From contig JAVVGF010000003.1 in the NCBI GenBank assembly GCA_032249235.1, forward strand, positions 64,001 through 128,000: a DNA stretch of 64,000 nucleotides, read 5' to 3'. The DNA comes from Thermoproteota archaeon. GTDB taxonomy: Archaea > Thermoproteota > Thermoprotei > Gearchaeales > Gearchaeaceae. Of this stretch, positions 14,549 through 26,986 are shown piece by piece. Under the pieces are notes generated by a model, which was not told the DNA's origin, did not search any database, and saw only the letters and a list, made by a program, of their open reading frames with translations. Position numbers and translations under genes: made by a program. Each line of letters begins with the position of its first letter. Within the stretch, counting starts at the first letter, position 1.

Positions 14549-14931
14549 TCGATAATTTCTATTATTGAATTATCTGCGTCGATAACTAATGTTTTAGCTT
14601 TCATCAATTTTTCCACATCTTCAAATTGAACCAGTGGTATTTTTGCAATCGCACATCCTGAAGCAGTTATTATATCTGCTTTTTTGCAAACTATTGATAA
14701 AGGAGCTTTATTGTTAAGCTTAAGCGCATATAGCTTATAAGCCCCTACGCTGCTTCCTATTGCATTAGGTATTATAAGTATTTTATTCGCTATGCTTTTG
14801 TTGCTTAAAGGATGCGAGATATCATTTACTTTTCCATCATCGTCGACCACCAAGAAATTGATGGGTTTTTCGCTATACAATACTTCTCCTTTTGCATAAC
14901 CTTTAACAATTGCTTTGCATTTCATTCGCAT
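14539..14931 (-). CDS. Aconitase X small subunit (DUF126); probable phosphomevalonate dehydratase subunit
   Basis: GYAKGEVL, AIGSSVG, NNKAP and GCAIAKIPLV motifs; paired with DUF521. Confidence 0.85.
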   Translation of the reverse strand: MRMKCKAIVKGYAKGEVLYSEKPINFLVVDDDGKVNDISHPLSNKSIANKILIIPNAIGSSVGAYKLYALKLNNKAPLSIVCKKADIITASGCAIAKIPLVQFEDVEKLMKAKTLVIDADNSIIEIIDQI

Positions 14932-16094
14932 TCTTCTTCAACTATTTCTTTCATACTTTTCAAGCTAACATTTACTTTGTTCCAATTCCTTAAATAATAA
15001 CAAGCTTTCACGCTATTAGTTATTACTGAATCGAATTCTTTTTTATCTACTAAAGGTGTTAAGCATGAACAAGAATCGCAATATATTTCAACACCTGCCC
15101 TTTCTAGCTCATTTACATAGCCAAACTTCTTCGCTTCATTGTATATTTTTCTAGCACAAAATAGAATGCATTTTTTCTTAAATTTCCTTTCTCCTTTTCT
15201 CAGCAAAATGCTTAGCATTCTCAATTCTTCCATTCCAAGTTGAGGGCTTCCGAATACTATCAGATCACCCTTATCAGAATTTGCAAGTCTTTCGAATATT
15301 TCCTTTGATTCTTTTTCATCATATTCTACTGTTTCCTCATATCTTGAATCTTTTTTAGCAAGCTCGAACATTCCCGCTGAGCCAGAGGTTCCTAGCGAGG
15401 CGCTTAAAGATTTAGCATAAATTTCGTTAAACCCATTTTTTATATCAAAGGCTATTGAATACTCATTGAATATTCCAGCGAAATATCCGAGCAAGCCATA
15501 TTCAAGTTCATTTTTTAATTCCTTCTTGACTCTAATGCACAATCTTGGCTTTCTAAATTCTTCTAATCTCAATCCAGAATAAGGAGACTTGCCTGTTATT
15601 GCACTTGCTAAAGCGCTGAGTGCGCTTTCTTTATTTGTTTTAAGACCTAATATTGAATTCGCAAATATTGCTGCATTACTTTCAGCGAAGCTTACATGCT
15701 TACCTCTTTCGGGGATTTCATAAACTTGATAAGGTATGCAAGTATAAGAAGCGATTATGCCCATTTTTTCATAAGCTCTTCTAATCCTTTCTTGCTTTTC
15801 TTTAAATTCCTTGCTTATAATTGCGCTTTTATATGGGTCGTAACCCATTGGATTAAGCGTAGATTTTATCTTAACTTTTTCTCCTTTCATTTTTTCGCTT
15901 AAGTCTTCAAGAAATTTCAAACCTGCATCTCCTATTGTATTGTAATTAACACCTGAAATATGAGCCCATTCGACTTCTATCAATTTTTCTGCATTCGTTG
16001 CTTCTCCTATAGCAACTAATATACTATAAGCTAATTCAATTGCTTCCCCATATTCTCCTTTTAGAGCTTTTTCTTCTTCATTAGATAAGTACAC
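14922..16094 (-). CDS. Aconitase X large subunit (DUF521); probable phosphomevalonate dehydratase subunit
   Basis: MYLSNEEE, AHISGVNY, TCIPY, ESNA..FANS, GSPQ, DSCSC and TNSVKA motifs. Confidence 0.88.
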   Translation of the reverse strand: MYLSNEEEKALKGEYGEAIELAYSILVAIGEATNAEKLIEVEWAHISGVNYNTIGDAGLKFLEDLSEKMKGEKVKIKSTLNPMGYDPYKSAIISKEFKEKQERIRRAYEKMGIIASYTCIPYQVYEIPERGKHVSFAESNAAIFANSILGLKTNKESALSALASAITGKSPYSGLRLEEFRKPRLCIRVKKELKNELEYGLLGYFAGIFNEYSIAFDIKNGFNEIYAKSLSASLGTSGSAGMFELAKKDSRYEETVEYDEKESKEIFERLANSDKGDLIVFGSPQLGMEELRMLSILLRKGERKFKKKCILFCARKIYNEAKKFGYVNELERAGVEIYCDSCSCLTPLVDKKEFDSVITNSVKACYYLRNWNKVNVSLKSMKEIVEEECE

Positions 16095-16165
16095 TTGTTA
16101 AATAACGCTAGTAAAATAATAAAAACTACTTTCAAAGTTTTATTCAAGATAATTTAATTTAAGAT

Positions 16166-16819
16166 ATGCCCAATCATTATTATGTTAACGTACTAGCTTT
16201 GTCTTTCAATTCAGAATGGTGGAAAATGAGCGAAACAAGACAAAGCGACGAGTTACTTGAGGTAGAAGAAGTATTGAAGAGGTTTATTAAAGAAAAAGAA
16301 ATCGATGTTCTTAGAATTTTCAATTCTTTGAGATATGATAACGATTTAATATTTTGGATCATAGCAAACGATACAAATAAAATAATTGAATTTCAAAGAA
16401 TTATAAAGAAAAAAATTGGAAAATACTCGAATCTTAGACATGGATTTCTTTCTATACTTGAACCTTCTCCTTATTTTAAAGGACAATTGAAGCCTTTCAA
16501 CAAGGAACCTAAGCGATATTTTGTTGCATATCCTATGAAAAGAGATCCTGAATGGTTTTTACTTAGCGAAGAAGAAAGAAAGAAAATAGTTGAAGAGCAT
16601 ATAAGAATTGCTGCAACCCATCCTGAAAATGTAGGAATAGTTTCTTATACATCATATTCTTTTGGTATCGATGATAATGAATATGTTGTACTATATGAGC
16701 TTGATTCGCTTGTTTCTTGGGCACATGTAGTTGAAAAGCTAAGGGAAGCGAAGCATAGGAAATGGATTTTAAGAGAAGAACCTCTTTTAGTTGGAGAACT
16801 ATATAGATTCCTAGCTTAG
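16166..16819 (+). CDS. Chlorite dismutase-family heme protein, coproheme decarboxylase (HemQ/ChdC)-like
   Basis: YPMKR..EW.LL..EER...EH, SFGIDD.E and KLRE motifs; Ser where true chlorite dismutases have the distal Arg. Confidence 0.8.
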   Translation: MPNHYYVNVLALSFNSEWWKMSETRQSDELLEVEEVLKRFIKEKEIDVLRIFNSLRYDNDLIFWIIANDTNKIIEFQRIIKKKIGKYSNLRHGFLSILEPSPYFKGQLKPFNKEPKRYFVAYPMKRDPEWFLLSEEERKKIVEEHIRIAATHPENVGIVSYTSYSFGIDDNEYVVLYELDSLVSWAHVVEKLREAKHRKWILREEPLLVGELYRFLA

Positions 16820-18060
16820 CATTTCATAGCTAAATAAACATTATTGACATTATTTCCTGTATAGCCTCTTTTTATTAGTTTATTCACTTTTTCGAAAGCA
16901 AAAGCAGTATTATTATCTGAAAATTCTTTTTCTATATCTATTCCTGCATCGATTATTTCTTTCAATGTATTCTCATCAGCCCATGCACCTGCAGCATTTG
17001 AATTTCCATCGAATCCATCAGTAGCATATGCTAAAATTTTAAAATTCTCTTTTACAGCGTTGATTATGAAAGATAGAGCGAATTCTGTATTTCTACCTCC
17101 TTTTCCTTTACCTATAACTTTCACTTCAGGCTCGCCGCCCATGATCAAAAGCTTCTTGTTTTTATTTTCAAGGAATATTCTTGCAAAAAGCTTCGCTATT
17201 TCTTTGCTCTCTCCTGAAGCCCAAGAAGTTAGTATTAAAGGATGAAGATTTCTCATTTTTTCTTTAATACCTTCAAGAACATCTCTATTCCTTAAAACGA
17301 TGAAATGAGGAGAATTTAGATGCTTAGGAGTTTCTTCAATTTCATTATTCATTCCTTTATTTATTATATTTCTTATCGATTCTGGAATTTTATCCCATAT
17401 ACCTCTGTTTTTCAAAATAGCATAAGCATCCTTGTAAGTCGTAGGATCAGCAACTGTAGGACCGCTACCTATTGTTGAGATATCATCAAATGGAACATCG
17501 CTTATTGCCAATGTAATAATTCTAGGTTTGCAAATCTTAGCTAGCCTTCCACCTTTAATCTTAGATAAATGTTTTCTTACAGCATTAATTTCAAATATTG
17601 TTGCGCCGCTCTTCAGCAATAAATCATTTAGCTTTATCAGATCTTCAAGATCTACAAAAGGATCTTCGATAAGAGATGACGAACCTCCTGATATCAAGAA
17701 AATTACTGAAGAATAGTCTTTCTTAATCTCTTCTTCTATTATCTTGCTTGCTTCTATGCTTTTTTCAGAAGGAAGAGGATGTGTAGATCTCACTTCAATG
17801 AATCCTTCTATTTTATCGAGCGGATCGTTTGAAGGTCTAACTATTATTCCTCTTTCAGGTTTTATGATTTCCTTAGCCCATTTCGCCATTTTGAAAGCAC
17901 ACTTACCAACAGATATTACAAGAGGCGTTGAACCAATTTCGAACTTAAATTTGTTGATTACTAATTTCGAATCTTTGATGATTACTCTTTTAAGTAATGC
18001 ATGGTATGAATCAGCTAAAGAATCTATCAATTCTATTAACTCTTGAATTTGATAATCCAC
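16816..18060 (-). CDS. Glycerate 2-kinase (MOFRL family)
   Basis: HPLP, LISGGSSSL, INAVRKHLS.IKGG, SGPT, GGRNTE, TDGFDG and TGNNVN motifs. Confidence 0.9.
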   Translation of the reverse strand: MDYQIQELIELIDSLADSYHALLKRVIIKDSKLVINKFKFEIGSTPLVISVGKCAFKMAKWAKEIIKPERGIIVRPSNDPLDKIEGFIEVRSTHPLPSEKSIEASKIIEEEIKKDYSSVIFLISGGSSSLIEDPFVDLEDLIKLNDLLLKSGATIFEINAVRKHLSKIKGGRLAKICKPRIITLAISDVPFDDISTIGSGPTVADPTTYKDAYAILKNRGIWDKIPESIRNIINKGMNNEIEETPKHLNSPHFIVLRNRDVLEGIKEKMRNLHPLILTSWASGESKEIAKLFARIFLENKNKKLLIMGGEPEVKVIGKGKGGRNTEFALSFIINAVKENFKILAYATDGFDGNSNAAGAWADENTLKEIIDAGIDIEKEFSDNNTAFAFEKVNKLIKRGYTGNNVNNVYLAMKC

Positions 18061-18131: not shown

Positions 18132-18476
18132 TTAATCTTTCAAGAGAGGAATAAATTTTCTTATTTCGTTGATCAATTTTTTTGCAATATTTATGCAATT
18201 GACAGCTAATTCCTCATTGATTTCAATTTCGCTATAATCGGCATCCTTCCTTCTCTCATATAGATAAAAAGCCTGCACAGCTAATTCCTCTTTTCCTAAA
18301 TATTTTAAAATGTTTATCAACTTATCATCTTTCTTAGGTATAGCTGATCTTAGACTTCTGGCTAATAACTCAATTTCTTTTCTAACAGCAAAGTATGAAG
18401 CAGAGACAGCTTTATTGAAACATTTATTCTTTATGTCAATTTCTGCTTCATTTATTAAAGTATCTGCCTTGTTCAT
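18132..18476 (-). CDS. HEPN domain protein
   Basis: AVSASYFAV and a C-terminal R..ADY motif; overlaps the upstream gene. Confidence 0.8.
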   Translation of the reverse strand: MNKADTLINEAEIDIKNKCFNKAVSASYFAVRKEIELLARSLRSAIPKKDDKLINILKYLGKEELAVQAFYLYERRKDADYSEIEINEELAVNCINIAKKLINEIRKFIPLLKD

Positions 18477-18984
18477 TTTCAGAAATTATGTAGAAGTTTA
18501 TAGAACAGTCATACTTAGAATTTACCTCAAGAGTAGCCTTCGCTATTTTTCTTATTATATCATCACTTTTATACTTAACAATTACTAAAACGTTGCTATC
18601 ATAACCGTTTATTTCTTTTACTTCAAGAATTTCAGGAAATTTCATCAATTTTTCTTTGAATTCCTTCAAGGAATCTTCGCAATCTTTTCTGCTCATTCTA
18701 TAACTCAAAAATGAATCAATAGTGTTCTTATCATTTTCATTAGTTATATAGAAATTTATCGAGCATTTATACTTCGAATTAATTTCTAGAGCAATTTTTG
18801 CTACTCTTTTTATTATCTCGTCTTTTTTATTCCTTACAACCACCAATACGTTACTATCATATATCAAGTCATCTTCTCCTAAACCTATTATCATTATTAA
18901 ATCATTTCCTAATTCATTTCTAAGTCTATCAGCAAACTCATATAATGCTCTCCCCCATTCTTCAGCAAAATTTAGTACGTACAC
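18448..18984 (-). CDS. Tandem-duplicated degenerate nucleotidyltransferase (MNT)-like protein
   Basis: Internal repeat YDSNVLVxV...I.K..LE.NSKY.CSINFYI occurs twice; sits in the antitoxin position upstream of a HEPN gene. Confidence 0.55.
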   Translation of the reverse strand: MYVLNFAEEWGRALYEFADRLRNELGNDLIMIIGLGEDDLIYDSNVLVVVRNKKDEIIKRVAKIALEINSKYKCSINFYITNENDKNTIDSFLSYRMSRKDCEDSLKEFKEKLMKFPEILEVKEINGYDSNVLVIVKYKSDDIIRKIAKATLEVNSKYDCSINFYIISENEQGRYFNK

Positions 18985-19358: not shown

Positions 19359-19994
19359 CTAATCCTTTTCTTCTTCTAAAACTCTAGCTATGATAGGCTC
19401 TTCAAGGACTATTTTCTCTATTAAAACTTCTTTTTCTTTCTCAAATATTTCTTCACCTAAAACTATTCCTGCAAGCAAAATCGTGCAAATTATGCTAGGT
19501 ATTAATAAGAATTGTGCAAACGTTAAGACTTTGATTGAAGTGTTTCCTAGGAAAACTTGGCCTGCTGAAGTTATGAAATTGTAATCTACTTCTAAGTATG
19601 TGAAAGCTTCTCGAATTGAATAATTTATCAAAGGTATTGGTGAGGTCATTGTTATAATTTGGGAAAAAATTGATGCGATGAAAAGACTTCTAACATTGGT
19701 GCTTTTTATTTTCTTTCTAGCATAGATTATGCTCGTAATTAAAAGAAAAATGCTTGAAGCTAACAAGGGTATTGATTTTAATATGATAGAATCATAAAAT
19801 GGAACCTTTAATTCTTTATCATAATAACTCAGATTATACCAAAGAAGTGCAATATTACCATTTACAATTCCCTTAACTGATATTATTGGAATTATTAAGA
19901 TCAGAATGCTCAATACTGCTGAAACTATTGCGAGAGGTATTTTTAATTTAAGGATAAACTTGCCTGCTTTCATATACAACACCATTTTTAGCAA
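19359..19994 (-). CDS. Multi-pass membrane protein of unknown function
   Basis: About four hydrophobic helices and an acidic C-tail; overlaps the upstream gene. Confidence 0.7.
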   Translation of the reverse strand: MLKMVLYMKAGKFILKLKIPLAIVSAVLSILILIIPIISVKGIVNGNIALLWYNLSYYDKELKVPFYDSIILKSIPLLASSIFLLITSIIYARKKIKSTNVRSLFIASIFSQIITMTSPIPLINYSIREAFTYLEVDYNFITSAGQVFLGNTSIKVLTFAQFLLIPSIICTILLAGIVLGEEIFEKEKEVLIEKIVLEEPIIARVLEEEKD

Positions 19995-20667
19995 ACTTGT
20001 AGTTGTATTGGAAACTTATGTAAATAATACCATTAAATGCATCAGCATTAATTTTAACTGTTTCTCTTGCTTTTACTTTAATTTCTCCTAATTCCTTAAT
20101 GATTGGCAATTGGTTAGTTGAAGGATAGTATAGAATCCTTACATTCGTTAAATTGAAGTCGATGAAATTAGGATTATAAACTTCAACACTTAAATTTCCT
20201 GTTTTAACCAATAAAGGCTTAAATTCTACTGCATATGAGTTATTCCATATTGCAAAGCCTTTGTCTAAAGTTATGTTTATTCTTAAATAAAAGTAGGAAA
20301 CAGAACTATTTGAATAATCATAAAGGATTGGATATATCTCTTTAGGAACAAAAACTATTATTCTATCTTTTTCTGTTTTTGAATTGCAAACAAAGCTGAA
20401 GTTAAAGGCAAATATTAAGCATTTACTTAAAGCTCGTATTTCTAGTTCTTTTATTGTATAATTCAAGTATATTATGCTACCATCTTCAGATAAATTAGTT
20501 GACTTAAGAGCAAAATCTGGCGAGTTATATCTAATAGGCATGTAAGAAGGAAAGAGCATAATGATTAAATCCAAGATGACAAAGATTGCAATTACTGAGA
20601 AAATGATTCTGAAATTTAATTTTTTATTATCATATCTAGAATAGTCCTTGAGCAATGCAGACCCCAT
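19948..20667 (-). CDS. Membrane-anchored beta-rich extracellular protein of unknown function
   Basis: One N-terminal TM segment, then beta-rich sequence with N-x-S/T sequons (VEVYNPNF). Confidence 0.7.
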   Translation of the reverse strand: MGSALLKDYSRYDNKKLNFRIIFSVIAIFVILDLIIMLFPSYMPIRYNSPDFALKSTNLSEDGSIIYLNYTIKELEIRALSKCLIFAFNFSFVCNSKTEKDRIIVFVPKEIYPILYDYSNSSVSYFYLRINITLDKGFAIWNNSYAVEFKPLLVKTGNLSVEVYNPNFIDFNLTNVRILYYPSTNQLPIIKELGEIKVKARETVKINADAFNGIIYISFQYNYKFAKNGVVYESRQVYP

Positions 20668-20847
20668 TTAATTCGATTTTCCTTAGAAGTAGTTTCCATA
20701 AAAGAATACTTTTAAAATTTTCTAAAAAAAAAAAGAAAAATTTAAAATTTTTTAAAAGAATTCTCGCTATGAAGTGTTTTCTGTAATAAAAATAACGCGT
20801 TGTATAAAGGAAAAATTTAAATACTTTTGTTATAAATAATAGCGAAA

Positions 20848-21465
20848 ATGGCTCTAGAAAAGATCAGAAAGAAAGCAAAATGGTTATTAGTAGTATTTGC
20901 TATCGTAGCAAGCATTTCAGTTGTTAATGCAGCTTTATTCGTTTACTACGATGCAAGTATAACTGCACAAGGTCAAAGGCCACCTGTAGTATTTGCACCA
21001 GGAAAAAATGCAAATGGTGCTGATCTTTGGGGTAACACAATAGGTGTAACTATTGATTCAACTAACACAACTTTAACTATAACTGTACATCCAACATATC
21101 GAACTCATTTCTATAGAAACATAACATTAATAGTAAATCAAGATACGGTAAATTCTTATTACTTAGCTTTTAACATAATAACACCTTTCACGAATACAAA
21201 AATAACACAGGCTAAGCTTTTCATAAGAAGTCTCGATGGCTCAACAACATATGCTACAATTAATCTTCTAACTACAGGTGTTCAAGGATGGCCTATTACA
21301 TTGGCTGGAAATCAAAAACTAAGAATTGATTTATTCCTAGTAATAACTCCTGGCGCAAGCGATACTTTCAATAATGCACCATTTGCAAGCGATAGCTGCA
21401 CGCTTCAGTTAGTCTATAGTCCACAAAACGCTGAAACACCACCTGCAAGTAGCTCAGGTCCTTAG
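20848..21465 (+). CDS. Secreted putative filament subunit, thread/donor-strand type
   Basis: Signal peptide ending VNA; mature N-terminus ALFVYY-x10-PPVVF; Thr/Asn-rich beta protein; C-terminal YSP..TPP tail. Confidence 0.65.
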   Translation: MALEKIRKKAKWLLVVFAIVASISVVNAALFVYYDASITAQGQRPPVVFAPGKNANGADLWGNTIGVTIDSTNTTLTITVHPTYRTHFYRNITLIVNQDTVNSYYLAFNIITPFTNTKITQAKLFIRSLDGSTTYATINLLTTGVQGWPITLAGNQKLRIDLFLVITPGASDTFNNAPFASDSCTLQLVYSPQNAETPPASSSGP

Positions 21466-21467
21466 AA

Positions 21468-22958
21468 TTGAAAAAGTATCTGATTGCAATTTTTTTCCTT
21501 TTTTTAATTTCCTATTTTCCATTATCAAATTCATCTTCTTTCATATATTATAATTCACAAGTAAATTTATCTGGGCAAAAACCTCCTCTTTTGCTTGATC
21601 CTCCTCCATATACTTATACTTGTACTGGCTTGACTAGAAATAGAACTGCAAATATAACTTATACAGACTTCGAAACTTATCCTTCAGGATGGGCTAGTAG
21701 AGGAGGTGCTTGGAACATTGTATCTGGAGGATATAAAGGTAATGCGATGCAAGGAACAGATAATAATGGCGGAATAGGAGCAGCTTCCCAGTTTTATTAT
21801 AATACTAGTTTGGATACTTATACTAGCCTTTGGGTTACTACTAAAGTTAAATTTGTATCAGGTCCAGGCAGAAACAGGCCAGGTGCACCACCCAATCTTG
21901 TTTATTTCGGACTAGCATTGATTAAATTTGAATTGGATAGACTTTATGAGATTTCAGTAAGTAGAGATGGTTATCTTAATATATGGAGTTATGGTGTAGA
22001 AGCTAGTGGCTGGTCTTTAAGGAGTCGAGTTCCAATTACGGGTTTTAATATAAATAATTGGTACGTTATAGTAGTTTTTTATAACGTAACATCTACTGCA
22101 GTTAATATTTCTGCTTACTTGTATGATACAATTGGGACACCTACTCCTGTTGCACAAACTTCGGCATCTTCAACAAGTGGGAATAAATTCACTCCTGCTT
22201 TCATAGGATTGGAAATTGATGGAGGAAATGGAGCTAGAGCGCTTTATGATGATTTCGAAATCGCTACAAGTGATTTAAGAGTTATTAATTTCAATAGTTT
22301 ACAATCAGGAATGCAAGTTCAAATAATCGATAACTTAAATAATTTAGTTGCGCAAGGAACAGCATCAACGAGTAGCTTAACTTTAAATGTTACAAGCGAC
22401 ATCGTTGTCGGAACAGGCACTGATGGTAGAATTATAATTAAATATCCCAATGGAATTAATTGTTTAATTTTCAACAATCCTACAAGTGATGCAATTCTAG
22501 GAGGAGATACATATAGCTTGGCTACTTCTACGATGACCATAACGATTGATTCAACAAAAACTAGCGCAAATGAAACATTTTATGTTGCAGGAAGCTTGAA
22601 CTATTTTACACAAACTATATTTTTAAACATCACTGTCATCGATACAAATAATTACTATGCTAGCTTAATATTAAATCAAACAGCAAGCACAATTTCGAGC
22701 AATCTCAATGCGAATATAACTTTAGTAAATAGAAATAACTTTAAATCAACGAATATTACTATAATAAATGGAGTTGTAACTAGTAGCACAACAAGTGAAA
22801 TTGTAGTATTTAATTCGAATAACTATATCTTTATAAGTGCAAGATATTCAGCTACCGGTCTTAGTTCAACACTCGTTTTAATACTTCAATATTGTACTTT
22901 ACAAAATTATTCAGGAGCATGTGTACAATATACAATACGCTTAATAATAAATAGCTAA
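21468..22958 (+). CDS. Secreted glycoprotein, putative filament cap/adhesin with a lectin-like insert
   Basis: Signal peptide, then SFIYY-x10-PP; DFE..PSGW...GAW and YDDFEI motifs suggest a ConA/LamG-like domain; many sequons; C-terminal Cys pair. Confidence 0.6.
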   Translation: MKKYLIAIFFLFLISYFPLSNSSSFIYYNSQVNLSGQKPPLLLDPPPYTYTCTGLTRNRTANITYTDFETYPSGWASRGGAWNIVSGGYKGNAMQGTDNNGGIGAASQFYYNTSLDTYTSLWVTTKVKFVSGPGRNRPGAPPNLVYFGLALIKFELDRLYEISVSRDGYLNIWSYGVEASGWSLRSRVPITGFNINNWYVIVVFYNVTSTAVNISAYLYDTIGTPTPVAQTSASSTSGNKFTPAFIGLEIDGGNGARALYDDFEIATSDLRVINFNSLQSGMQVQIIDNLNNLVAQGTASTSSLTLNVTSDIVVGTGTDGRIIIKYPNGINCLIFNNPTSDAILGGDTYSLATSTMTITIDSTKTSANETFYVAGSLNYFTQTIFLNITVIDTNNYYASLILNQTASTISSNLNANITLVNRNNFKSTNITIINGVVTSSTTSEIVVFNSNNYIFISARYSATGLSSTLVLILQYCTLQNYSGACVQYTIRLIINS

Positions 22959-22992: not shown

Positions 22993-24264
22993 TTGTATAT
23001 GAAGTGGCGCGCTATTATTGGAGGAACTATAGGTTGGATGGTCGATGTCTACGATCTAACTTTGGTTCTTTTCGTAACAGCAATAATAGCTAGCGCCTTC
23101 TTCCCTCCAACAGATCCTTTGCTATCCATGCTATATGTATTTTCTTCTTATGCACTTTCATTGCTATTCAGACCACTAGGAGGAATAATATTCGGTCATG
23201 TTGCAGATAAAATAGGAAGGAGAATTACAATGATAATAACGCTTCTAGGATTAGGTATATTTTCAGCATTGACAGGAGCTTTACCAACATATGCTCAAGT
23301 AGGCATATTAGCTTCGATACTTTTCATAATACTAAGAATACTAGTAGGTATATTTGTAGGAGGTGAAGTATCTGGCTCTCATTTAATTGCTATTGAAGGT
23401 AGCTCAACAAAGCAAAGAGGCCTGACGAGCGGCATTTTGCAATCAGGCTATTATTGGGGTTATTCACTAGCTGCTTTCACTTTTCTAAGCATGGCAGCAT
23501 ACTTTGGAAAGGATTTTGGAGCATATGGCTGGAGATATGCATTCTATATTAGCATTATTGTAAGTGTTATAGGATTGCTATTAAGACTCGTTGTAGGAGA
23601 GTCTGAGTTATTTGAAGAAGTTAAAAAAGAAAAATTAATTGCAAGAGTCCCAATTAGCACGTTATTCAGAAATTATTTGAGCGAAGTATTAATGGCTATG
23701 TTATTGATGAGCGGTATTTATTGGGTCGCATATTCTACGCTCGGATACTTACCAACTTATCTTTCACAACTCAAATATGATAGGACTTTCATCTTCTCAG
23801 CTTTGGGTTATGCAGGAATCATAGGAGGTATAATGACTATAATAGGCGGAGCATTAAGTGATTATCTCAAAAGAAAATGGAGTTTCATGACTTATAGCAT
23901 ACTTGGTGCTTTATTAAGTATTCCTTTAATTTCATTTTTATACACAAAATCCTTCGTTCTTGTTACAATATCTTCTGGTTTAATAGTAGGTTTCATAGGG
24001 CTTTGCGGAGGCGTAATGCTCGCTTATCTTTCTGAGCTATTTGCTACAAACGTTAGAGGCACAGCAATAGGCTTTATATGGAACATCGTTAACATAGGTT
24101 CAACAGTTGGATTGCTTCTTGCACCTATCTTAACAACTACTTATGCATTATTCTGGGGTTATGCATTCTTATTAGTAGGAGGCTACACAGTTACAATAAT
24201 AGGTTCTCTCATAACAGTAGATAAAACAGGAATAGATCTAAGATTGTTGAAAGCAGTGAAATAA
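22993..24264 (+). CDS. MFS transporter, metabolite:H+ symporter-like
   Basis: DVYD, RPLGGIIFGHVADKIGRR, GGE, GWR and SELFATNVRG motifs. Confidence 0.9.
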   Translation: MYMKWRAIIGGTIGWMVDVYDLTLVLFVTAIIASAFFPPTDPLLSMLYVFSSYALSLLFRPLGGIIFGHVADKIGRRITMIITLLGLGIFSALTGALPTYAQVGILASILFIILRILVGIFVGGEVSGSHLIAIEGSSTKQRGLTSGILQSGYYWGYSLAAFTFLSMAAYFGKDFGAYGWRYAFYISIIVSVIGLLLRLVVGESELFEEVKKEKLIARVPISTLFRNYLSEVLMAMLLMSGIYWVAYSTLGYLPTYLSQLKYDRTFIFSALGYAGIIGGIMTIIGGALSDYLKRKWSFMTYSILGALLSIPLISFLYTKSFVLVTISSGLIVGFIGLCGGVMLAYLSELFATNVRGTAIGFIWNIVNIGSTVGLLLAPILTTTYALFWGYAFLLVGGYTVTIIGSLITVDKTGIDLRLLKAVK

Positions 24265-24371
24265 CATAATTTAAAATAATTTTATATTTTAAAATTCTAA
24301 AAAAAAATTAAAATAAAATTTTAATTTTTTATACTATTAGATTTAAAAACCAGCCTTTTATAGAAACTGTA

Positions 24372-26390
24372 ATGGAAAAAGATTTCCTCGATTTAAATCA
24401 AGGAGCTAATTGGATTGAAGAAAAAGATGGCACGTTCTTCGCGATTTTCTCAGCTAATGCTACTAAAATCGAGATAGTTCTCTATTCAAGAGAAAATCAA
24501 AGATATCCTAAGGAATCAATAGAGATTAAGGATAAAAAAGGAAACATTTGGTTTACTTTTATTTCAGGAATAAAGCCAGGAGATTTATATTGTTATAAGG
24601 TTCATGGTCCTTACAAGCCTGAAGAAGGATTTAGATTCAATCCCAATAAAGTTCTAATAGATCCTTATGCAAAAGCTGTCGCTGGTACAATACCTTTGAA
24701 ATGGGATGATTCATTGTTTGATTTCAAAATAATTAATAATGAGTTTTTAATGAACGATCTTCCTAATGATGAGTTCATACCTAAATGCGTTGTAATAAAT
24801 CCATATTTTAAATGGGAAGATTATGACTTCATAAAGAATAGGAAAAGATGGAAGAAGGAAATAATTTATGAAACACATGTTAAAGGATTTACGCAACTTA
24901 TGAAGGATTTGCCGAATGAAATTCGTGGAAAGTATGCTGCATTATCTTCGAAGAATGTTATAAGTTATCTAAAGGATTTGGGAATAACCGCTATTGAGCT
25001 AATGCCTGTCCATGCTTTCATCGATGATAAAATCCTTGTAGAAAAAGGATTGAGAAATTATTGGGGATACAATCCCATAAATTATTTCTCTCCTGAAGCA
25101 AGATATTCAAGTTCAGGATATTATGGAGAGCAGGTTTATGAATTTAAGAAAATGGTAAATGAGTTGCATAAAGAAGGAATTGCAGTAATTCTTGATGTTG
25201 TTTACAATCATACAGGTGAAGGAAATCATCTAGGACCATTTCTTAGTTTTAAAGGAATAGATAACAAATCCTATTATTTACTTAATCCAAATGATCAAAG
25301 GTATTACATTGACTATACAGGTGTTGGTAATACGCTTAATACTTCTAGCAATGCTGTTATCCAAATGATCATAGACAGCTTAAGATATTGGGTAAAAGAA
25401 ATGCACGTCGATGGCTTTAGATTCGATTTGGCACCTGTATTAGCTAGAAACTATGAAGTTGTCAATATGGAACATCCTATAATTAAGGCAATTGAAAAAG
25501 ATCCTGCTTTAGAGAACATTAAGCTAATAGCAGAACCTTGGGATTTAGGTCCAAATGGATATCAGCTTGGAAAATTTCCTTCAAGCTGGTATGAATGGAA
25601 TGGAAAATATAGGGATTTGATGAGAAGATTCTGGAGGGGAGAAAGCTTTCCTTATTATGAAATAGCAAATTTAATTCTTGGCTCACCAGATCTTTTTGTT
25701 CATAAAAATCCTTTTGCTAGCATAAATTATATTACTTGTCATGATGGCTTCACACTTGAAGATTTAGTGAGTTATAATCAAAAGCATAATGAAGCGAATT
25801 GCTTCGATAATAAAGATGGATCTGATGAAAATTATAGCTTCAATTTCGGTATCGAAGGTCCTACAAATGATGAGGAGATTTTAAGGCAAAGAGAGAAGCA
25901 AAAAAGGAATTTCATCATAACATTAATGATTAGCCAAGGAACGCCTATGATACTTGGAGGAGATGAATTAAGCAGAACTCAAAAAGGAAATAACAATGCA
26001 TTTTGTCAAGATAATGAGATTTCTTGGTATTCTTGGGAATTGGATGAAAGGAAAAAGAAATTCTTTAATTTTATGAAATCAATAATAAACTTCAGGAAAA
26101 GTAGTAGAATTTTCGAAAATCCTAATTTTCTTAAGGATGTTATATGGCTTAAAGAAAATGGGAGCGTCGTCGATGACTTGAGCTGGAGAATGCCTACAAA
26201 TTTCATAGCATTCATTTTCAAAGATGAAAACAAGTTTTTAGTAATTCTAAATGCAGGCAGTAATAGAAAATTCAGGCTACCTGAAGGTAAATGGCGAGTA
26301 TTATTTTCTTCGACAGAAAAAATAAAAGAAGGTGAAGAAATTGAGATTGAAGAAAGAAGTTCTGTAATCTTTGAAAAAGTAAATGATTAA
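24372..26390 (+). CDS. glgX: Glycogen debranching enzyme/isoamylase (GH13, TreX-like)
   Basis: IDPYAKA, YETHVKG, NYWGY, DVVYNHT, DGFRFDLA, IAEPWD and HDGFTL motifs. Confidence 0.93.
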   Translation: MEKDFLDLNQGANWIEEKDGTFFAIFSANATKIEIVLYSRENQRYPKESIEIKDKKGNIWFTFISGIKPGDLYCYKVHGPYKPEEGFRFNPNKVLIDPYAKAVAGTIPLKWDDSLFDFKIINNEFLMNDLPNDEFIPKCVVINPYFKWEDYDFIKNRKRWKKEIIYETHVKGFTQLMKDLPNEIRGKYAALSSKNVISYLKDLGITAIELMPVHAFIDDKILVEKGLRNYWGYNPINYFSPEARYSSSGYYGEQVYEFKKMVNELHKEGIAVILDVVYNHTGEGNHLGPFLSFKGIDNKSYYLLNPNDQRYYIDYTGVGNTLNTSSNAVIQMIIDSLRYWVKEMHVDGFRFDLAPVLARNYEVVNMEHPIIKAIEKDPALENIKLIAEPWDLGPNGYQLGKFPSSWYEWNGKYRDLMRRFWRGESFPYYEIANLILGSPDLFVHKNPFASINYITCHDGFTLEDLVSYNQKHNEANCFDNKDGSDENYSFNFGIEGPTNDEEILRQREKQKRNFIITLMISQGTPMILGGDELSRTQKGNNNAFCQDNEISWYSWELDERKKKFFNFMKSIINFRKSSRIFENPNFLKDVIWLKENGSVVDDLSWRMPTNFIAFIFKDENKFLVILNAGSNRKFRLPEGKWRVLFSSTEKIKEGEEIEIEERSSVIFEKVND

Positions 26391-26584: not shown

Positions 26585-26986
26585 ATGGAGGATTATAAGC
26601 ATGCTGTTGAGCATCTCGATATTGCAATGAAATACTTAGAGGAAGGAAGAAATCTAGTTGATAAGGATCCTGTTCAAGCATCTGAGAAACTTTATAAAGC
26701 GGCTGAAGAAGCTGTCAAAACCTTAGCTATATTTCTAGGATTAGATGAAGCTAGAAAAGCTATAGAGCAAGGTAGATGGTCTTCAATATTACTTTTTGAT
26801 GCAATCGATACTGTTGCAATAAAATTGAACATTAAGGAGCTACCCCTGTGGTGGAGAGCTGCTTTGGTTCTTCATGTAGAAGGATTTCATGAAGCTAGAT
26901 TAAGTAGAGATAGAATTAAGAAAGATTATAAGTACATAGAGGCAATAGTCGATCTTACTAAGAAAGTTTTACAGGAAAAAATTTGA
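26585..26986 (+). CDS. PaREP1 family protein (HEPN fold)
   Basis: DPVQASEKLYKAAEEAVK, GRW and LHVEGFHEA motifs. Confidence 0.9.
   Translation: MEDYKHAVEHLDIAMKYLEEGRNLVDKDPVQASEKLYKAAEEAVKTLAIFLGLDEARKAIEQGRWSSILLFDAIDTVAIKLNIKELPLWWRAALVLHVEGFHEARLSRDRIKKDYKYIEAIVDLTKKVLQEKI

Follow-up and report, generated by a model that had tools for sequence, protein, structure and literature searches.

A candidate donor-strand surface filament locus of the thread family, of a second locus type, in a Thermoproteota archaeon

We analysed a 64,000-nucleotide (nt) stretch of a Thermoproteota genome (assembly GCA_032249235.1, contig JAVVGF010000003.1, positions 64,001 to 128,000; hereafter the window), in which four adjacent genes at 19,359-22,958 had been proposed, in a preliminary description, to encode a surface filament built by donor-strand exchange. 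Our analysis supported this interpretation with corrections. With a probability of about 0.8, these genes specify a surface filament that depends on Sec for export, is held together by donor-strand complementation and belongs to the thread (Saci_0406) family of the TasA superfamily, in a sister lineage that we call type B. The list of open reading frames (ORFs) placed the four ORFs at the positions originally given, and all four were intact. Two plus-strand genes encode a subunit of 205 amino acids (aa) and a 496-aa secreted protein, called here the tip protein; the two divergent genes encode proteins of 239 aa and 211 aa, which had been described as membrane proteins. The corrections concern this second pair: its members have no detectable sequence similarity to saci_0407 and saci_0408, and the 239-aa protein corresponds to one half of a peptidase fusion in relatives. 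The source is a 1.43-Mb assembly of 18 contigs (91% complete, ~31% G+C) and is not a Sulfolobus. None of the four proteins matched Pfam or NCBIfam above noise.

The sequence comparisons indicate that the subunit is a member of the 0406 family that departs from it in one reported hallmark, the isopeptide-forming Asp at the mature N-terminus. When the single sequence was searched against the PDB with phmmer, it matched the solved Sulfolobus acidocaldarius thread (7pnb; E value 1.2e-3), residues 7-201 of 205 aligning onto 2-202. A 10-sequence subunit profile returned 7pnb as its sole match, end to end (E 1.5e-5). In the alignment to 7pnb, VNA/ALFVYY falls on VLVA/DVIYYY (slashes mark cleavage sites), the two PP motifs coincide, and the tail SPQNAETPP is matched to SPMTASPPP. 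The resemblance to Saci_0406 proposed in the preliminary description thus held for the YY...PP strand as well as for the SP..PP tail, and the alignment also takes in the signal peptide. The published thread map lacks Met1-Ala23 of the subunit (PMC9715654); here and below, statements on published systems refer to the accessible parts of the cited sources. The subunit did not match the Pfam TasA family (Peptidase_M73; PF12389) or DUF1102 at E values up to 1, and the AbpA structure was not among the PDB matches of the subunit profile. Published HHpred work gives only a remote link between 0406 and TasA. Seven of the eight database homologues of the subunit are ~200 aa long, and the eighth (172 aa) is N-terminally incomplete.

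The two secreted proteins share their N-terminus. The subunit reads ...VVNA ALFVYY DASITAQGQR PP VVF and the tip protein ...LSNS SSFIYY NSQVNLSGQK PP LLL, with a common YY-x10-PP pattern ending in GQ[RK]PP. When all six frames of the 1.43-Mb genome were searched with the subunit sequence, only the subunit itself and the adjoining tip N-terminus were recovered (E 0.0025, residues 10-52). In a profile-profile comparison of the two families, the signal peptide and the strand aligned with an E value of 2.6e-7 and a probability of 93%. In addition, the predicted mature end [SA]-V/L-F-x-Y-Y(P)...PP was present in all 33 subunits from type B loci. On these three grounds the likeness, which the preliminary description had pointed out, is beyond chance at the sequence level. 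In both proteins a small-x-small site closes the hydrophobic N-terminal stretch (VNA/A in the subunit, SNS/S in the tip protein) and aligns with the experimentally known cleavage site of Saci_0406 between A23 and D24. Both proteins are predicted, from this alignment and from inspection, to carry an ordinary Sec signal peptide.

To the shared strand the tip protein adds a large globular part. Its AlphaFold2 model (45 aligned sequences) had a mean predicted local distance difference test score (pLDDT) of 93.8; only aa 21-40 were of low confidence, and no strand was modelled there. The domain that follows is predicted to adopt a concanavalin A-like fold, and its fold suggests carbohydrate binding. 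In a Foldseek search its match to the carbohydrate-binding module CBM66 (4b1m) had an E value of 1.7e-5 (TM-score by target 0.64, root-mean-square deviation (rmsd) 4.6, 195 columns). Peanut lectin (2pel, 0.51), PL-14 alginate lyase (5gmt, 0.52), the sialic-acid-binding lectin domain of a sialidase (2w68, 0.49) and the lectin domains of staphylococcal adhesins matched as well. A weak Laminin_G_3 Pfam match was found in only 2 of 45 tip family members, and phmmer found no match of the tip protein among PDB sequences at E values up to 1. The family is large: a profile of 16 tip proteins, searched against 1.84 billion cluster representatives, matched 486 with E values of 1e-3 or less, of which 112 had values of 1e-30 or less. 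The last ~140 residues resemble the subunit family (hhalign E 9e-5, probability 59%). The C-terminal part of the tip family hidden Markov model (HMM) matched 12 of 28 subunits at a domain E value of 1e-3 or less, but not the window's own subunit (2.8). The tip protein thus reads as a subunit whose strand and body are split by ~300 aa of lectin and small beta domains.

We used ESMFold2 to model a 1:1 pair of the mature chains, tip protein aa 23-496 and subunit aa 29-205, each with its own alignment. The interface score ipSAE was 0.91, 0.91 and 0.92 in three runs and 0.00 in all three controls; contacts agreed by at least 97% between runs, and partner pLDDT was at least 87. In the calibration of this score, 58 of 80 solved complexes passed the mark applied, as did 2 of 110 mismatched pairs; the figures apply only roughly here, since custom alignments were used. 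In the modelled pair, tip residues 23-40 lay between subunit strands 74-90 and 172-193, the predicted strand-accepting groove, with tip residues 32-39 paired to residues 78-83 and 182-184 of the subunit, whose own strand (29-44) was outside the interface. The model supports tip-subunit binding, without showing it, and predicts donor-strand complementation from the tip protein to the subunit. With the shared donor strand and the confidently modelled lectin domain, the predicted insertion into the subunit groove agrees with the earlier suggestion that this protein is a cap or adhesin.

To place the locus among its relatives, we collected subunit genes from across the phylum. A first subunit profile matched 8 of 120 genomes of the class; with a mixed subunit profile, matches were obtained in 57 of the 401 genomes sampled from the phylum. 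Forty-six subunit-gene surroundings were fetched, giving 47 loci with the window; 40 of them were the best-scoring phylum matches, so this is a chosen sample. Their ORFs were called with a simple longest-ORF script, clustered by BLASTP and re-scored with the family HMMs. Two partner sets emerged: 31 loci carried the type B set, 15 carried the Sulfolobus-type set (type A), none carried both and one carried neither. Type B partners are a secreted 385-520-aa protein sharing the subunit strand, a 340-400-aa protein that joins an S26 peptidase to immunoglobulin (Ig)-like domains, and a ~200-aa protein with four transmembrane (TM) segments. Type A partners are a ~255-aa protein with one TM segment, a ~265-aa 4-TM protein and a 440-510-aa protein. 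Co-conservation of the genes had been set beforehand as a test by which the proposal could fail, and the outcome favours the proposal: 23 of the 31 type B loci have the tip, Ig-domain and 4-TM genes all next to the subunit gene. A maximum-likelihood tree was built from 49 subunits, leaving out one row of 335 aa. In it the 15 type A rows fell on one side of a branch with support 100/99, and the window and its congener lay together inside type B. The sample holds 12 family codes for type B and 3 for type A.

One type A locus, L072, has a subunit identical to the 7pnb chain over the alignment stretch compared, and on that basis it is taken to be the S. acidocaldarius locus. The window partners had no BLASTP match in a type A locus better than E 1.1. 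At the sequence level, the window locus is not of the saci_0405/0407/0408 cluster type, and the idea that its two membrane proteins are orthologues of saci_0407 and saci_0408 was dropped, since neither BLASTP nor hhalign found similarity. In several genomes the type A 440-510-aa protein itself carries an ADV.Y.Y-type strand behind a signal-like segment, as in its own subunit (L020:4069-5553, L022:2772-4301, L023:3007-4527, L090:6951-8387, L091:6918-8393 and L072:6125-7453). The 442-aa copy in L072 lies downstream of a 179-aa protein and starts with SASVYYFF. These proteins would be large strand-bearing partners analogous to the window tip protein; the accessible text of the thread paper names the gene of the 442-aa protein only as part of the cluster (PMC9715654).

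A hydropathy script found three hydrophobic segments in the 211-aa protein and one in the 239-aa protein, and AlphaFold2 modelled the latter (29 aligned relatives, mean pLDDT 91.8) as a helix at 15-42 followed by beta sandwiches at 51-149 and 150-239. Both are thus membrane proteins, as the preliminary description had it. The 239-aa protein aligned only with the TM helix and C-terminal Ig half of the relatives' 340-400-aa fusion. The first ~110 residues of that fusion, which has three hydrophobic segments, match signal-peptidase models. Three of six tested relatives reached the Pfam gathering score (L061 and L065 for Peptidase_S26, L077 for Peptidase_S24), one was below threshold, and two had no match at E up to 0.01; the copy in G003, a genome placed in the same genus as the window's, had a signal-peptidase match of E 0.059. 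The Ser of the SMxP box, the His of the HR box and the GD.N..D box were kept in all 13 full-length rows of the fusion alignment. We take this Ser and His to be the catalytic pair of archaeal/ER-type signal peptidases such as SipW. When the fusion family profile was searched against the window's own genome, the window gene matched model positions 143-364 only, and the sole other match was an intact stand-alone 162-aa S26 peptidase on contig 6. By alignment and profile, the peptidase half is missing from the 239-aa protein and no S26 signal peptidase lies inside the window locus. The 180-bp spacer 5′ of the gene leaves no room for a lost peptidase domain.

The S26 domain was present in 27 of the 31 type B loci. 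Among the four loci without it, an Ig-half gene was detectable in two, the window and its congener G001, and both copies are peptidase-less. The window's gene is the only one of this kind that adjoins its subunit gene, the congener's being on another contig. The G001 protein (270 aa) is 42% identical to the window's and is followed by its own 4-TM gene. G003 carries the full peptidase fusion in a co-linear four-gene locus (L007, contig 5). The proteins of that locus are only 22-36% identical to those of the window, and the assembly is 74% complete with 4% contamination; contig 5 may come from another lineage in the bin. Its tip frame is open for 474 aa, of which the first ATG/GTG/TTG gives 329 aa only. 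DUF5305 and DUF1102 had no Pfam match among the tested window and fusion proteins.

The 211-aa protein matched its G003 counterpart with a BLASTP E value of 2e-4. Its ESM Atlas copy begins at residue 4, which may be the true start. Beyond this the Atlas was uninformative for both membrane proteins; a Thermoproteota cluster of 256 aa (TM-score 0.47/0.40) is a lead only. The same 4-TM domain as in the 211-aa protein preceded the tip protein in 16 of 69 representatives having the tip N-terminal region. Among the fetched loci, five from one clade of the subunit tree encode a 686-754-aa fusion of the 4-TM and tip proteins, and in a sixth locus of the clade two neighbouring ORFs make up this arrangement between them. 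Where the two parts join, the fusions have a fifth hydrophobic segment and an A-x-A/SVF.YYP site. Because this internal signal-like segment and cleavage site ahead of the donor strand are kept, the fusions are probably cut into two proteins. For the same reason we rejected the fusions as proof of membrane anchoring. They show a functional tie and one-to-one synthesis of the 4-TM and tip proteins, not permanent anchoring.

Assembled contigs from a hot-spring metatranscriptome, ~95% identical to the window, covered 20890-21008 and 21039-22249, the second bridging the subunit/tip junction. They fit transcription of the subunit and tip genes in a close relative. Contig depth was 625 and 122 over these genes compared with 2-15 elsewhere on the stretch, values that we did not use to rank expression. 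Cover was absent or slight at 19907-20710 and beyond 23525, from which we conclude nothing, as contigs cannot show silence. A near-identical stretch was also present in hot-spring runs of several studies.

Two variations of the subunit were also observed. At 21437, in the subunit tail, 21 bases were missing from contigs of a related strain (at 21437 in an RNA run and at 21435 in a DNA run), and the seven-residue ASSSGP-type tail extension of the window subunit was absent in 5 of the 8 database homologues, indicating that tail length is polymorphic. In G001 the tip gene is directly followed by a gene (L006:8729-9274) for a 181-aa subunit-like protein that is 35% identical to the window subunit. 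It has a shortened strand region (no YY...PP) and no Pro-rich tail, and could act as a minor subunit or as one that terminates the fibre. No counterpart of this gene is present in the window, where a major facilitator superfamily (MFS) transporter gene comes after the tip gene.

The data above show the homology of the subunit, the domain composition of the proteins and the co-conservation of the genes, and they predict strand insertion from the tip protein into the subunit. How such a system would work, including whether a filament forms, how it is oriented on the cell and whether it binds sugar, we infer by analogy from the solved thread and the literature on TasA, ABP and Tafi; the peptidase that does the cutting in this genome and the tasks of the two membrane proteins we deduce from the make-up of the locus itself. 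The subunit and the tip protein would be exported and cut after VNA28 and SNS22, respectively, freeing a strand of the form [AS]-x-F-x-YY...PP. Subunits would then polymerise head-to-tail, each strand entering the open groove of the next subunit. Because the tip protein donates its strand to a subunit and is not predicted to receive one, it would occupy the end of the fibre where a groove is free, acting as initiator or cap and presenting its predicted lectin domain as a carbohydrate-binding adhesin. In most relatives the cutting would be done by the locus-encoded S26 peptidase fused to two Ig-like ectodomains. In the window genome, since only the membrane-anchored Ig half remains in the locus, it would have to fall to the stand-alone S26 peptidase encoded elsewhere. 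The Ig protein and its 4-TM partner would have been kept for a non-proteolytic membrane role, such as handing over or anchoring subunits.

Several points weigh against this reading. The filament is predicted here from genes and one modelled tip-subunit pair; no filament has been seen. Identity between the subunit and Saci_0406 is low (~20% by eye). The Asp24-Asn57 isopeptide of the thread, formed with subunit n+2, is reported to be kept in all homologues, whereas an Asp at the mature N-terminus was found in 0 of 33 type B subunits compared with 12 of 16 type A subunits. The window residue is Ala29, and N63, which aligns with the isopeptide Asn, varies among the window's relatives. All pairs tried between the partner families and the Sulfolobus-type families F4, F5 and F6 had hhalign probabilities below 8%. 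The complex score may in part stem from the model having memorised solved donor-strand filaments such as 7pnb, in which subunit binds subunit, and the tip protein might in principle accept a strand as well, through its subunit-like C-terminal domain. For the 239-aa protein, Foldseek and an exhaustive search with VIA-align gave matches only to generic Ig/FN3 folds (best Z 9.1, an amylase accessory domain); PapD, CupB2, RbmA and FlaF were among many equal matches, with 1qpx at rank 40. No function can be read from a fold this generic. The 211-aa protein received no family assignment from Pfam or NCBIfam and no fold assignment from the ESM Atlas look-up. The G001 membrane genes are on a different contig from its subunit and tip genes, and the missing peptidase domain could equally mark decay. 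Finally, the RNA contigs are assembled sequences of a related strain, by which neither expression rank nor a single transcript is provable.

Some of these points feed alternative readings. Since the C-terminal domain of the tip protein is homologous to the subunit body, it could hold a groove of its own, and the 496-aa protein could then be an intercalating minor subunit that both donates and accepts strands and decorates the shaft of a real filament with lectin domains. The model, which covered one 1:1 pair, leaves room for this. In that same model, however, the tip strand was inside the interface and the subunit strand outside, each locus has one tip gene directly after the subunit gene, and the published proposals for Saci_0405, AbpB and TapA are analogous to a cap. 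We consider shaft decoration unlikely. A different possibility is that strand exchange serves a small non-filamentous assembly, for example a wall-bound lectin complex on the S-layer or on a membrane partner. A 2025 paper predicts some strand-donating pilin homologues to be non-filamentous or non-assembling, and our modelling was limited to the tip-subunit pair. However, the homology of the subunit to a protein whose structure was determined in filament form extends from end to end, and the subunit has a donor strand along with a predicted acceptor groove, the geometry of an open-ended polymer, which makes this alternative very improbable.

The window locus might also be a decaying remnant in which loss of the peptidase domain and inversion of the membrane-gene pair disabled assembly, so that no fibre is made. 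The prevalence of the S26 domain among type B loci, and the peptidase-less state of the only two Ig-half genes found without it, are what such a history would leave. On the other side, the four ORFs are intact, the peptidase-less form is conserved in G001 and still paired with a 4-TM gene, and the genome retains an intact general S26 peptidase. The environmental data also speak against decay, in that the near-identical stretch recurs across studies and both the subunit gene and the tip gene are represented among RNA contigs from a close relative. We judge this explanation improbable and retain the assignment of the four genes to a donor-strand filament.

Compared with the S. acidocaldarius thread (saci_0404-0408; 7pnb; PMC9715654), the window locus shares a subunit homologous over its full length, with a Sec-type signal, a YY strand ending in PP and a Pro-rich tail. 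It also shares a strand-sharing protein encoded directly downstream of the subunit and two adjoining membrane-protein genes, which in S. acidocaldarius are reportedly under a separate promoter (PMC9715654). By our ORF calls, the N-terminally anchored ~255-aa protein and the ~265-aa 4-TM protein of Sulfolobus-type loci parallel the window pair in topology. The differences are also clear. The window subunit belongs to a separate clade without the isopeptide N-terminal Asp, and its partners have no detectable sequence similarity to the Sulfolobus-type families. In the window, the downstream protein combines a clear signal peptide with an inserted lectin domain; Saci_0405, by contrast, is a small protein (179 aa by the ORF call in L072) that is reported to lack a Sec signal (PMC9715654). 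A dedicated S26 peptidase accompanies the type B relatives, and none is reported for threads in the accessible sources.

With Bacillus subtilis tapA-sipW-tasA and the archaeal AbpA/AbpB bundling pili (ABP; PMC9245690) the locus shares a donor-strand subunit and a larger secreted partner. The TapA/AbpB-type partner has been proposed as the giver of the first strand and a possible adhesin (PMC9245690). The window's relatives, like the B. subtilis operon, encode a dedicated archaeal-type signal peptidase, but theirs is fused to two Ig-like domains, and the window copy has no peptidase; no dedicated peptidase is reported near the abp operon (PMC9245690). The haloarchaeal Tat-fimbriae (Tafi; TafA/E pilins, the signal peptidase TafD with its C-terminal ectodomain, TafG and TafF; PMC11821415, PMC12337348) are also encoded by a strand-donation pilus locus. 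It includes a multi-TM S26 peptidase with a second extracellular domain and further small membrane proteins of polytopic topology. Its adhesin-like protein, which joins TM segments to a pilin-like region, can be compared with the 4-TM/tip fusions. Tafi differs in using Tat export, against a Sec-type signal here, and the DUF5305/DUF1102 families are unmatched here. The Tafi paper reports that thread and ABP clusters lack tafD/tafG homologues.

Chaperone-usher pili of the FimH type likewise use strand complementation between Ig-like subunits, and their terminal protein combines a lectin domain with a pilin-like domain. However, FimH accepts a strand, whereas the tip protein here would donate one. 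The resemblance of the tandem-Ig protein to the chaperone CupB2 is only generic (Z 7.4, 77 residues, rmsd 3.4), and general Pfam scans of the four window proteins gave no usher or PapD-type chaperone match. The thread subunit family and its restriction to Thermoproteota have already been published, as have dedicated signal peptidases, accessory proteins and tip proteins in TasA, AbpX and Tafi loci. In the literature searched, no clade of 0406-family subunits is described as having a 4-TM protein, a lectin tip and a fusion of peptidase and Ig domains for partners, although the supplementary synteny figures of PMC9715654, which were outside the search, may show some of it.

The features of the locus are listed in Table 1. 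The minus-strand genes overlap by 47 nt, the 211-aa gene running over the 3′ end of the 239-aa gene. One TTTAAA-type stretch lies ~25-32 bp ahead of the subunit ATG, which suggests that the spacer between the gene pairs may act as a promoter region.

Table 1. Features of the putative filament locus in the window (positions in window coordinates; dashes in the strand column denote the minus strand)
Feature	Position	Strand	Length or residues	Remarks
Small polytopic membrane protein ORF	19359-19994	-	211 aa	3-4 predicted TM segments
Membrane-anchored tandem-Ig protein ORF	19948-20667	-	239 aa	
Divergent spacer between gene pairs	20668-20847		180 bp	AT-rich; TTTAAA-type stretches, read from sequence
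Subunit ORF	20848-21465	+	205 aa	Thread (Saci_0406) family, type B branch; putative major filament subunit
Subunit signal peptide (predicted)	20848-20931	+	aa 1-28	Predicted mature end A29
Subunit donor strand (predicted)	20932-20994	+	~aa 29-49	Followed by beta-rich body and SPQNAETPP... tail
Large tip/initiator protein ORF (putative role)	21468-22958	+	496 aa	
Tip signal peptide (predicted)		+	aa 1-22	
Tip donor strand (predicted)	21534-21596	+	aa 23-43	
Tip concanavalin-like lectin domain (predicted)			~aa 45-268	Boundaries approximate
Tip small beta domain (predicted)			~aa 270-340	Boundaries approximate
Tip C-terminal subunit-like domain (predicted)			~aa 350-496	Boundaries approximate

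The flanks (14922-18060 and 22993-26390) hold ordinary metabolism and transport genes, among them those for aconitase X, a chlorite-dismutase-family protein, a MOFRL/DUF4147 (glycerate-kinase-type) protein, the MFS transporter and a GlgX-type debranching enzyme with CBM48. A HEPN-domain protein is encoded at 18132-18476 (minus strand; Pfam 26.2 bits, above the cut-off). Its gene overlaps the 3′ end of an upstream gene at 18448-18984 (minus strand) for a 178-aa protein without family assignment, in which two internal repeats were seen by eye. The two may form a HEPN toxin-antitoxin-like pair beside the filament locus. A PaREP1/PaREP8 family protein is encoded at 26585-26986 (plus strand; E 1.2e-27), and the next ORF encodes a similar protein of 134 aa that co-clustered with it by BLASTP.

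As a tentative extension, to which we give rather low credence, the tandem-Ig protein and its 4-TM partner may form the assembly or anchoring platform of thread-type fibres and work without proteolysis. If so, most lineages would weld this platform to a signal peptidase, bringing cleavage, strand capture and hand-over to one site, and the copy that has shed its protease half would show that the Ig/4-TM pair has a function of its own, such as holding the cell-proximal free strand or chaperoning subunits. The 4-TM/tip fusions would in that case mark the start of the fibre and fix its polarity, the tip protein being made first and pushed outward.

Threads are the least understood archaeal surface fibres, and a 2026 review describes their assembly and anchoring as unknown. 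Our results indicate that the thread subunit family has a second branch, spread over more taxa in the sample than the Sulfolobus-type branch, which uses a TasA/Tafi-like helper set of a peptidase-Ig fusion, a 4-TM protein and a lectin-bearing tip protein. Type B loci thereby tie threads to the wider TasA superfamily by gene neighbourhood, beyond the fold. They also offer a testable polarity, with the tip protein donating its strand to the subunit, and name a candidate adhesin domain. Finally, the peptidase-less copy in the window may serve as a natural separation-of-function case for the second half of the helper protein.

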